From positions 12,704 through 76,703 of the forward strand of contig JABFSA010000003.1 in NCBI GenBank assembly GCA_013140775.1: DNA of 64,000 bases, written 5' to 3'. The first letter of the stretch is position 1. Every line of letters begins with the position of its first letter. Origin of the DNA: Acidobacteriota bacterium. GTDB lineage: Bacteria; Acidobacteriota; Vicinamibacteria; Vicinamibacterales; UBA2999. The position numbers were made by a program, and so were the translations under genes. The notes below the pieces were generated by a model, which did no database searches, was not told where the DNA came from, and saw only the letters and a list, made by a program, of their open reading frames with translations. Shown one piece after another: positions 30,114-32,350 of the stretch.

Positions 30114-31091
30114 ATGGACCCGCGATCAACGGCAGACGCCGAGAGTCGAAGCACACACCTCGCTGAGCGTGTGCGCGACGGCGATCCGCGAGCGATTGCC
30201 CGTGCCATGTCGCTTGTCGAAGACGACACGGCTGCAGGCGTCGAGCTGTTGCGCGCGCTGTTCGCCCACACCGGCCGTGCTCGCCTGATCGGGATCACAG
30301 GACCGCCTGGGGCGGGCAAGAGCACGCTCGTCGATCGACTGACACGTGAAATTCGAAACGAGAACAAGCGCGTGGGGGTGCTGGCGGTCGATCCCACGAG
30401 TCCCTTCAGCGGCGGTGCAGTGCTCGGGGACCGCGTGCGGATGGGACGACACTTCGCCGACAGCGGAGTCTTCATCCGCAGCATGGCCACACGCGGGCAG
30501 CTTGGCGGTCTTGCGCGCGCCACGACCGACCTGGCGCAGATCCTCGATGCCTCCGGTGTGGACGTCGTCCTCATCGAGACGGTCGGTGTGGGGCAGGGCG
30601 AGGTGGACATTGCGAAGTCGGCGGACGTCTGTGTGGTCGTGCTCGCGCCGGGCAGTGGCGACGAGGTGCAGGCACTGAAGGCCGGGATCATGGAGATCGC
30701 GGATCTGTTCGTGGTCAATCAATCCGACAGAGACGGTGCCGATCACCTTGTCCAGGCCATCATGGCCAGCCAGTCGTTGCGACCGGCCGAGCCCGGGGAG
30801 TGGCAGCCGCCGATCCTCAAGACCGTGGCGACAACCGGCGACGGTGTTGCGGCTCTGTGGGCCTCGATCGGACGCTTCCTCGCGCAGTCTCCCTCTTCCT
30901 CAACCGAGCGGCGCCGTACACGGCACCAACACCGTTTGCGGGAGCTGCTCGCGCATCGTTTTCTGACGAGCCTGGAGCAGGCGCTACCCGCGGGCGAACT
31001 GGACAAGACTGTCGATCGAATTGCCGCGCGAGAGGTCGATCCGTATTCGGCGGCGGACGCACTGATCGCTCGCGCCTTCTCTCGACGATGA
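30114..31091 (+). CDS. meaB: Methylmalonyl-CoA mutase-associated GTPase MeaB
   Basis: GITGPPGAGKST, AVDPTSPFSGGAVLGDRVRM, IETVGVGQ and QALKAGIMEIAD motifs. Confidence 0.93.
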   Translation: MDPRSTADAESRSTHLAERVRDGDPRAIARAMSLVEDDTAAGVELLRALFAHTGRARLIGITGPPGAGKSTLVDRLTREIRNENKRVGVLAVDPTSPFSGGAVLGDRVRMGRHFADSGVFIRSMATRGQLGGLARATTDLAQILDASGVDVVLIETVGVGQGEVDIAKSADVCVVVLAPGSGDEVQALKAGIMEIADLFVVNQSDRDGADHLVQAIMASQSLRPAEPGEWQPPILKTVATTGDGVAALWASIGRFLAQSPSSSTERRRTRHQHRLRELLAHRFLTSLEQALPAGELDKTVDRIAAREVDPYSAADALIARAFSRR

Positions 31092-32350
31092 AAGCGATCC
31101 TCGACCACATCGGCATTGCCGTCCAGGACGTGGAGGCCGCGCTTGGGTTCTATCGCGACGCGCTCGGCCTGGACGTCGAGGCGCCTGAGGAGGTCCTTTC
31201 GCAGCGCGTGCGAACGCATTTCATTCCAGCCGGCCAGGCGGCTCTGGAGTTGCTCGAGCCCACCGCGCCTGATTCACCCATCGCCCGGTTTCTCGCCACT
31301 CGTGGACCTGGACTCCACCACGTCACGCTTCGTGTCGATGATATTCGTGCGGCTCTGGAGCAGTTGAGCGCCCGCGGAGTGCGCCTGATCGATACGCAAC
31401 CCAGGCCCGGCGCACACGAATCGCTCATTGCGTTCATTCATCCCTCGGCCGCGCACGGCGTGCTCGTTGAACTGAAGCAGGCGGCGGCTCCGGCCGCGTC
31501 GCTGACGGCGAAGCGCATCCAGCTGGGCGACCTCAGTCTCGTCAGCCTGCACGACGGGTTGTTTCGTCTCGATGGCGGTGCGATGTTCGGCGTCATTCCG
31601 CGCCCACTGTGGGAGACGCAGATGGCACCCGACAATCGCAACCGGATCGTGATGGGCATGCGCCCGCTGGTGATCGAGGCCGGTTGGGGCCGGATGATGA
31701 TCGACTGTGGCCTTGGCAACAAGATGGACGCGAAATCGGTGGAGATCTACGCTATCGATCGGACGCGTCATCTGGCCCATGCTCTGGCCGATGTGGGGTT
31801 GGGCGCTGCATCGATCGACGTGGTGCTCGCGACACATCTGCACTTCGACCATATTGGCGGGGCAACGACACGTGTCGAGGGTGCCGTCGTCCCGGCCTTC
31901 CCGAAGGCCCGATACGTGATTCGTGCCGCGGAGTGGGAAGACGCGGTCCACCCGCACGAACGAAGTCGCGCGAGCTATCTGAAAGACGACTTCATACCAC
32001 TGAAGGACGCTGGGGTCATCGACTTCCATCAAGGGGACGGTGAGATTCGACCCGGTGTGCGTGTCGTGCGCACCGGTGGTCACTGCGCGCAGCACCAGAT
32101 TGTCTTTGTCGAGTCCGCAGGGCAGACGGCTGTTTTCGTGGCCGATCTGATTCCCACGATTGCCCACATCCGGGACGTATGGATCATGGGCTACGACCTC
32201 TACCCGATGGAGACTCTGGCCTTCAAGCGTCAGTTCATTCGCGAAGCCATTGATCGTGAATACCTCATTTTCTTCGAACACGATCCGGTGGTTGCTGCCG
32301 GATACATCCGCGAGAAGGCCGGCAGGAGGTACGTGGAGCAGGTGTTGTAA
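31088..32350 (+). CDS. mce: Fusion: methylmalonyl-CoA epimerase + YtnP-like metallo-beta-lactamase-fold hydrolase
   Basis: N-terminal LDHIGIAV...LELLEP...GPGLHHV...GVLVELKQ (VOC-fold epimerase), then RLDGGAMFGVIP, THLHFDHIGG, GHCAQH, ADL and FFEHDP, all in one frame. ATGA overlap with meaB. Confidence 0.85.
   Translation: MKAILDHIGIAVQDVEAALGFYRDALGLDVEAPEEVLSQRVRTHFIPAGQAALELLEPTAPDSPIARFLATRGPGLHHVTLRVDDIRAALEQLSARGVRLIDTQPRPGAHESLIAFIHPSAAHGVLVELKQAAAPAASLTAKRIQLGDLSLVSLHDGLFRLDGGAMFGVIPRPLWETQMAPDNRNRIVMGMRPLVIEAGWGRMMIDCGLGNKMDAKSVEIYAIDRTRHLAHALADVGLGAASIDVVLATHLHFDHIGGATTRVEGAVVPAFPKARYVIRAAEWEDAVHPHERSRASYLKDDFIPLKDAGVIDFHQGDGEIRPGVRVVRTGGHCAQHQIVFVESAGQTAVFVADLIPTIAHIRDVWIMGYDLYPMETLAFKRQFIREAIDREYLIFFEHDPVVAAGYIREKAGRRYVEQVL

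Follow-up and report, generated by a model that had tools for sequence, protein, structure and literature searches.

What is a hydrolase of the YtnP-like metallo-beta-lactamase (MBL) family, characterised so far only by in-vitro lactonase assays for quorum quenching, doing on one polypeptide with methylmalonyl-coenzyme A (CoA) epimerase? The question is posed by a gene in a 64,000-nucleotide stretch of contig JABFSA010000003.1 (positions 12,704 to 76,703, forward strand; hereafter the window, numbered from its first letter) from a soil-dwelling Acidobacteriota bacterium of the order Vicinamibacterales (assembly GCA_013140775.1). An earlier note on this DNA had singled out the gene and taken its architecture to tie the MBL family to propionyl- and methylmalonyl-CoA metabolism, for example as a thioesterase or metabolite-repair enzyme. 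That reading is supported in part. The comparisons described here bear out the tie, with more evidence than the letters alone could offer, through a fusion that appears fixed in its clade, through neighbouring genes where the two domains are unfused, and through three operon layouts elsewhere. We argue that the hydrolase probably serves propionate breakdown rather than signal quenching, and offer a more tentative proposal for its substrate.

The fused gene and its two domains

Translation of the window yields a single protein from one uninterrupted open reading frame (ORF) of 420 codons followed by a stop (32348-32350), with its parts in the order epimerase, linker, MBL:

31088..32350, + strand: fused gene, epimerase plus linker plus YtnP-like MBL hydrolase (translation, profile models, AF2 model)
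31088..31480, + strand: epimerase domain of the VOC type, residues 1-131 (TIGR03081, alignments to 3rmu, 6wf6 and 3oa4, Foldseek match to 6wfh)
31481..31516, + strand: Ala/Pro-rich linker AAAPAASLTAKR, residues 132-143, 12 residues (translation; pLDDT falls to 81 here)
31517..32347, + strand: MBL-fold hydrolase domain, residues 144-420 (PF00753, NF047919, conserved columns, Foldseek match to 3esh)

The ATG of the fused gene (31088-31090) overlaps the TGA of the preceding gene, meaB (31089-31091), in an ATGA at 31088-31091, as expected from the translational coupling described in the earlier note. A longer in-frame ORF beginning at a GTG at 30800 represents a GC-rich open frame; because every homologue begins with MKA(I/V)LDH, the start is placed at 31088. 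The components previously read from the letters, namely an epimerase ending near 31480, an AAAPAAS linker and a full MBL domain with an HxHxDH motif, are all present, AAAPAAS occupying residues 132-138 (31481-31501) and the motif, as HLHFDH, residues 250-255 (31835-31852). Pfam recognises Glyoxalase_4 (1.7e-24) and Lactamase_B (1.3e-14) in the protein, and AlphaFold2 models the whole fused chain at pLDDT 96 and pTM 0.83 from an 89-row alignment, which was needed, the same fold run without an alignment having given pLDDT 34. By profile search, the fused gene is both the sole epimerase and the sole YtnP-like gene of its source genome (4.86 Mb, 94% complete). Taken at the level of sequence, the architecture is that of a real two-domain protein which has been maintained.

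The N-terminal domain is predicted to be a regular methylmalonyl-CoA epimerase. Residues 5-131 pass the TIGR03081 cut-off of 114.95 with 140.4 bits, over model positions 2-129 of 129, and H7, E54, H77/H78 and E128 align with identical residues in the solved epimerases 3rmu and 6wf6, positions that we take, from published epimerase structures, to be metal-binding or catalytic. The domain thus aligns end to end with known enzymes of this class (TIGR03081; human MCEE 3rmu, S. coelicolor 6wf6/6wfh, P. shermanii 1jc4) with its His and Glu positions kept; its paired beta-alpha-beta-beta-beta fold matches those of solved epimerases with Foldseek TMt values from 0.82 (6wfh) to 0.91 (3oa4), and its gene is placed after meaB. 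The window protein differs from these enzymes in bearing an extra 285-residue MBL hydrolase domain at its C-terminus. Both domains are known as such, and their combination is unremarked in databases, where fused homologues, if named at all, are called 'methylmalonyl-CoA epimerase' only (Acidobacteria or Vicinamibacterales), a naming that conceals the second domain.

The C-terminal domain exceeds the PF00753 cut-off (55.1 bits against 22.7) and aligns, through residues 145-404, with positions 1-259 of 274 of the YtnP lactonase model NF047919. The score is 223.8 bits (225.1 in the genome-wide search; a Nitrospira orthologue scores 208.3) and falls below the cut-off of 425, so that the domain is not a YtnP equivalog. 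Its metal-site residues are H250, H252, D254, H255, H332, D353 and H398. In 41 diverse homologues (33-45% identity), H250, H252, D254, H255, H332, D370 and H398 are invariant, as are D162, G164, P171, W175 and D182 of an N-terminal LDGGAMFG...W motif; D353, Y297, Q337 and H360 are nearly so. Since the metal-site columns are conserved across these homologues, the catalytic site is considered intact, and the domain is predicted to be a functional two-metal hydrolase. Motifs particular to the family are LDGGAMFG (161-168) and ERSRASY (291-297). Among solved structures it comes closest to 3esh, a still uncharacterised hydrolase from S. aureus (174 bits; TMt 0.90 and 32% identity by Foldseek), followed at about 20% identity and TMt 0.72-0.81 by the clade of lactonases and methyl parathion hydrolase (AidC, LrsL, 4-pyridoxolactonase, AiiA). 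With YtnP lactonases and 3esh the domain shares a common fold, the HxHxDH...H...D...H site, the N-terminal LDGGAMFG and a full-length model match; from true YtnP it differs in its score, in its fusion to an enzyme of CoA esters and in the placement of its family in mutase and MeaB operons. We therefore assign it, on profile and fold matches, to the YtnP/3esh lactonase-like clade at sub-equivalog level, and not to glyoxalase II. The YtnP-like family is a large one, comprising 16,274 cluster representatives at E <= 0.001 in a search whose query also held the epimerase domain.

Distribution of the fusion and of its unfused relatives

Metagenomic relatives were found by a word-indexed search in more than 100 clusters; they are about 420 residues long (416-428), share 71-89% full-length identity and all have both Pfam domains. 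The survey of architectures across Acidobacteriota that the earlier note had proposed was run on 401 sampled genomes (its MBL and mutase tallies include the unpublished genomes G024, G049 and G152) and found the fusion clade-wide, with separate adjacent genes in sister lineages. In the family to which the window belongs, 12 of 13 genomes have a full-length match, the thirteenth, in 420 contigs, having a partial match only; one genome of a sister family also has the full-length fused form, and an uninterrupted epimerase-MBL frame occurs in six further named metagenome-assembled genomes (MAGs) of Vicinamibacterales type. All 18 fused loci that were compared retain a meaB stop of their own, and their linkers are Pro/Ala-rich and 4-26 residues long, plus one low-complexity linker of 138. 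The latter, in the fused orthologue at L039:6587-7000, consists of GEAGGAGEAG-like repeats. From this distribution the fusion is judged to be fixed in its clade.

The genes that accompany the fused gene in the window, and the mutase to which they refer, are as follows:

30114..31091, + strand: meaB, G-protein chaperone of adenosylcobalamin (AdoCbl)-dependent mutase (PF03308 1.3e-89; TIGR00750 336.4 bits against 240.75)
32416..33279, + strand: MTAP, S-methyl-5'-thioadenosine phosphorylase (TIGR01694 319.1 against 274.85), a constant downstream neighbour in Acidobacteriota
33377..34318, + strand: PfkB-family sugar/nucleoside kinase (PF00294 1.2e-40), a frequent next gene in the cluster
1860..3488, + strand: acyl-CoA mutase large (catalytic) subunit, methylmalonyl-CoA mutase-like (PF01642 5.7e-221; TIGR00641 752 bits; in-frame ATG at 1860)
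3498..3911, + strand: small B12-binding subunit of the mutase (PF02310 5.6e-29)

The two mutase subunits, 27 kb upstream of the fused gene, are thus where they had previously been located. Sister families within the order give best MBL matches (53-61% identity) that span only residues ~132-420 of the window protein, and the flanking genes appear separately as meaB, the epimerase gene mce, MBL, MTAP and the PfkB kinase; the unfused MBL starts at an ATG of its own, in many cases overlapping the end of mce in a different frame. The meaB-mce-MBL-MTAP block, often with overlapping genes and with the kinase present or absent, extends to other families and classes of Acidobacteriota (MBL identity 41-48% in the other classes), and an acyl-CoA dehydrogenase gene often lies upstream of its meaB. 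In a quickly built maximum-likelihood tree of 109 MBL domains, all 17 fused and 8 unfused Vicinamibacteria-type sequences form a single clade (SH-aLRT 99), and the fused state requires one to four changes on the tree.

Seven Terriglobia-type loci keep the order meaB, MBL, MTAP with no epimerase between. None of the six such genomes searched has a TIGR03081 match above cut-off (best 29-45 bits), and all five searched for mutase have two large-subunit genes. The six genomes G405-G410 (L043-L045, L061, L063, L069) are of Terriglobia type with MeaB and without a canonical epimerase anywhere. In a 41-genome sample of the same order, MBL occurs in 36 and canonical epimerase in 14, of which 13 lie within ~700 nt of MBL; 19 of the 36 MBL-bearing genomes have no epimerase match at E <= 1e-25, a group that includes all three unpublished genomes of the sample (G423, G426, G434). 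Neither these three nor G024, G049 and G152 underlie any statement made here about an individual genome. Judged from gene content and order, the steadiest partner of the MBL is MeaB and the mutase, not the epimerase.

Outside the Acidobacteriota, other layouts are found. In all five Nitrospira loci, the MBL gene stands between those for the mutase large subunit and the B12-binding subunit, which is followed by a carboxyltransferase and, 4 kb further, MeaB; in L042 the end of the MBL gene and the beginning of the B12-subunit gene share 4 nt. Genes around these loci encode a 2-oxoacid dehydrogenase E2, a thiolase, a 3-hydroxyacyl-CoA dehydrogenase, two enoyl-CoA hydratases, an HMG-CoA-lyase-like protein and MmgE/PrpD. 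One Nitrospira MAG (G401, contigs C62 and C86) has two mutase-MBL copies, L042 among them, whose MBLs are 97% identical; mixed strains or a duplication of recent date could account for these. An unclassified bacterium (L049) has its genes in the order MeaB, mutase large subunit, B12 subunit, MBL, carboxyltransferase (PCC-beta), biotin carboxylase, biotin carrier (BCCP) and a second mutase, with a canonical epimerase about 1 kb past the stretch examined for gene order. A Cloacimonadota MAG (L051) has MeaB, mutase large subunit, an intervening-sequence protein, B12 subunit, MBL, a nitroreductase, carboxyltransferase and biotin carboxylase. The MBL therefore adjoins mutase-pathway genes in more than one phylum and in more than one gene order. 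Within a set of 111 loci, which is a biased sample, 51 have at least one pathway gene (meaB, mce, mutase subunit or carboxyltransferase) on the strand of the MBL and no more than 3 kb away. Our search of the literature found nothing tying an MBL to methylmalonyl-CoA epimerase, mutase or MeaB. The association with the pathway is well supported.

Roles considered for the hydrolase

A fixed fusion, together with three independent operon layouts involving mutase, MeaB and propionyl-CoA carboxylase, provides a concrete hypothesis for the natural role of this MBL family. The fused protein would be a bifunctional cytosolic enzyme on the route from propionyl-CoA to succinyl-CoA, its MBL domain attacking an acyl-CoA thioester of the pathway and releasing free CoA and the acid. 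Methylmalonyl-CoA would be the likeliest substrate, with succinyl-CoA, 3-hydroxyisobutyryl-CoA or an aberrant analogue as alternatives. The enzyme could act as an overflow or proof-reading valve when the B12-dependent mutase stalls, either for lack of B12 or while damaged cofactor awaits MeaB-driven repair; CoA would then not be trapped, and inhibitory esters would be kept from building up. Joining to the epimerase would set a 1:1 ratio and put the hydrolase where both stereoisomers arise. This assignment, in which the MBL frees CoA by hydrolysing methylmalonyl-CoA or a related thioester of the pathway, is tentative, and we give it well under even chances. Slightly less probable is a broader idea, in which YtnP-like MBLs in bacteria would constitute an unrecognised third accessory of AdoCbl-dependent acyl-CoA mutases beside MeaB and adenosyltransferase, a hydrolase of methylmalonyl-CoA or a related acyl-CoA that frees CoA at a stall; the 'quorum-quenching' activity of Bacillus YtnP on N-acyl homoserine lactones (AHLs) would in that case be secondary in a family of metabolic enzymes.

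To our knowledge, methylmalonyl-CoA hydrolase activity has so far come only from rat liver. A D-methylmalonyl-CoA hydrolase was purified from that tissue (Kovachy, Copley and Allen 1983, pmid 6885824, cited in PMC5697208) and, as far as the citing account describes it, has the activity proposed here and eases the build-up of methylmalonyl-CoA at a mutase block. It is known there as an activity alone, and any kinship with the MBL would be pure conjecture; our literature search for a methylmalonyl-CoA hydrolase gene returned nothing beyond passing mentions. If the proposal is correct, a gene could be assigned to this activity, and one of the best-studied cofactor-dependent pathways would gain an extra component. 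The freeing of CoA from methylmalonyl-CoA would also explain how B12-scavenging soil bacteria tolerate a stalled mutase. Hydrolysis of CoA thioesters at a two-metal MBL site has precedent in Pseudomonas PqsE, an MBL-fold thioesterase, and in human MBLAC2, although neither is among the 50 best structural matches of the window protein and the likeness is at the level of fold. MBLAC2 is an MBL-fold enzyme that hydrolyses acyl-CoA (PMC7949124). The glyoxalase I/II system, in which VOC and MBL folds act successively on one thioester, offers an analogy for a paired epimerase and thioester hydrolase, but not one of membership, as glyoxalase I models score about 22 bits and the N-terminal domain is an epimerase, not a lyase. 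Covalent joining of AdoCbl mutase partners is known from IcmF, where a MeaB-like G-protein is joined to isobutyryl-CoA mutase; in the window other components are joined, an epimerase and an enzyme not hitherto counted in the mutase system, and the IcmF model is matched only partially by the window's MeaB and mutase.

A number of observations weigh against a dedicated thioesterase of the mutase pathway. The closest relatives in sequence and structure are lactonases and the S. aureus protein 3esh; the 50 best structural matches include neither glyoxalase II nor any other thioesterase, and the glyoxalase II (GloB) model TIGR03413 gives 16 bits where 200.8 would be needed. Unrelated genes surround the MBL in about half of the loci: an arginine-deiminase-family gene, KsgA and RNase T in Gemmatimonadota; QueG and a thioredoxin-reductase-like gene in Ignavibacteriota and Bacteroidota; PAS histidine kinases and response regulators in Acidobacteriaceae. 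An MBL homologue (E 1e-51 to 1e-70) occurs without any PF01642 match in at least seven near-complete genomes of Acidobacteriota, and B. subtilis, which has true YtnP, showed no mutase in a control run. In Nitrospirota, where both genes are patchy, co-occurrence is strong, which favours the link to the mutase, but not strict: across 61 genomes, MBL and PF01642 mutase occur together in 10, MBL alone in 4 (all MAGs, two of them of 1.6-1.7 Mb), mutase alone in 2 and neither in 45, counts that kinship within the group causes to overstate independence and for which no p-value is therefore given. Given such mutase-less carriers, the MBL family at large extends beyond organisms with a mutase. Finally, MTAP is in Acidobacteriota as constant a neighbour of the MBL as meaB.

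One of the alternative substrates was considered through the genome's complement of related enzymes. As a check on whether the MBL fills the 3-hydroxyisobutyryl-CoA hydrolase step, the source genome was scored against the HIBCH (98 bits, cut-off 274), MMSDH (318, cut-off 448) and HIBADH (225, cut-off 292) models; the neighbouring steps, like the hydrolase step, are without a clear equivalog. The genome's best 3-hydroxyisobutyrate-dehydrogenase-like gene (TIGR01692, 225 bits) lies in the same window, at 52961-53899 on the - strand.

The alternative that survives best retains the link to the pathway and alters the chemistry. The MBL would be a true lactonase-type esterase that acts on a non-CoA by-product, for example a lactone or a cyclic anhydride such as succinic anhydride from succinyl-CoA, and so limits chemical damage; an anhydride of this kind is conceivable on general chemical grounds. 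The close relatives of known chemistry (AidC, LrsL, AiiA, 4-pyridoxolactonase and the ancestor of methyl parathion hydrolase) all open lactone or ester rings, the YtnP model is matched over its full length, and the evidence from neighbourhoods applies equally. Nevertheless, no such substrate is documented for the MBL family, and this scheme gives no account of a fusion to epimerase in particular; we regard it as unlikely.

The recurrence of MTAP, which the earlier note did not consider, suggests another role, in nucleoside salvage. Here the MBL would work with MTAP and the PfkB kinase, for example in clearing 5'-deoxyadenosine products of damaged adenosylcobalamin, and meaB-MBL-MTAP would form a unit for the clean-up of cofactor damage. 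Wherever an MBL of Acidobacteriota is preceded by meaB, MTAP comes immediately after it, even where mce and MBL are parted by an insertion of 1.6-3 kb (L055, L057, L092) or mce is missing (L043-45, L061, L063, L069, L081); MTAP passes its equivalog model, and no terminator-like site lies between the genes. On the other hand, the MBLs of Nitrospira, L049 and L051 have mutase and carboxylase genes around them and neither MTAP nor a kinase nearby, the fusion partner is the epimerase and not MTAP, and we know of no MBL step in the salvage of methylthioadenosine or 5'-deoxyadenosine. This role appears improbable.

Slightly less probable again is an ordinary quorum-quenching AHL lactonase like that of Bacillus, for which operon position and fusion would have no metabolic meaning. 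YtnP is indeed the best named family, the Bacillus members of which break down AHLs in vitro (PMC9201388, PMC8228444), and a paralogous clade in Acidobacteriaceae has genes for PAS histidine kinases and response regulators as neighbours. Yet the NF047919 score is about half of the YtnP cut-off, and three layouts across phyla, a fixed fusion to an enzyme of CoA esters and co-occurrence with mutase in Nitrospirota are hard to ascribe to chance.

The paralogous clade is itself well supported and separate. It is found in Acidobacteriaceae/Terriglobales with no mutase-pathway neighbours (L077, L078, L080, L091, L098, L106, L109), its MBL lying at about 7001-7810 in most loci, with L023:4457-6031 and L080:7113-8900 as examples of neighbouring genes. 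Clusters of PAS histidine kinase and response regulator genes adjoin the MBL in 14 loci, L080 included, and one protein of 794 residues (P0271) reads as an MBL-PAS-HisKA fusion. MAGs of 'Candidatus Sulfotelmatobacter' have both MBL types, one with meaB 0.5 kb upstream (L081) and one with no pathway neighbour (L091), which suggests that the types are paralogues with different roles.

A role in which the MBL would be an accessory of the mutase itself, either as a structural partner or as an epimerase substitute where epimerase is missing, seems very unlikely. It would accommodate the translational coupling of the Nitrospira MBL between two mutase subunits, as well as the absence of canonical epimerase from six of six meaB-MBL-MTAP genomes (with two mutase genes in the five searched) and from 19 of 36 genomes of their order. 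Against it, the fully conserved two-metal site speaks for catalysis, a substitute would be redundant when fused to an epimerase, weak VOC-family matches exist in the epimerase-less genomes, and flux from succinyl-CoA to propionyl-CoA, as in E. coli, needs no epimerase. Lastly, a fusion created by assembly or sequencing error, or by a stop codon lost in this genome alone, the singleton that the earlier note had named as fatal to its reading, can be dismissed: some entries of odd architecture (P0256, P0272, P0273, L041) are clearly frameshifted, but 17 other loci from separate assemblies and the metagenomic clusters share the open frame, and both domains are clearly constrained.

Irregular loci and flanking sequence

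Among the fused relatives, a search for longer forms found four single-member proteins, of which P0272 and P0273 contain only patchy Pfam fragments; P0256, from another search, matches piecewise, and these three were read as frameshifted assemblies and set aside. Two distant representatives lie on contigs of 1-2 kb. The fused orthologue at L041:6573-7832, its MBL part up to 72% identical, has two stops or frameshifts in a long-read MAG, for which sequencing error is more likely than a pseudogene. Whole meaB-mce-MBL-MTAP-kinase blocks of Vicinamibacterales type also occur under the names 'uncultured Acidimicrobiia' (L036) and 'uncultured Bifidobacteriaceae' (L037); their MBLs nest in the Vicinamibacteria clade, and mis-binning or mislabelling is likely.

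In the window itself, 29400-34600 was scanned for promoters and terminators, with no more hits than chance would give, and the PfkB-family kinase matches no equivalog, its best NCBIfam score (89 bits) being far below cut-off. Just upstream of meaB lie two ORFs without a Pfam match, at 29027-29575 (+ strand) and 29598-30077 (- strand), one of which opens with a Pro/Ala-rich, signal-peptide-like stretch. The minus-strand ORF starts only 36 nt away from where meaB is annotated to begin, and homologues align from MeaB residue 16 onward; the true start of meaB may therefore lie further downstream.

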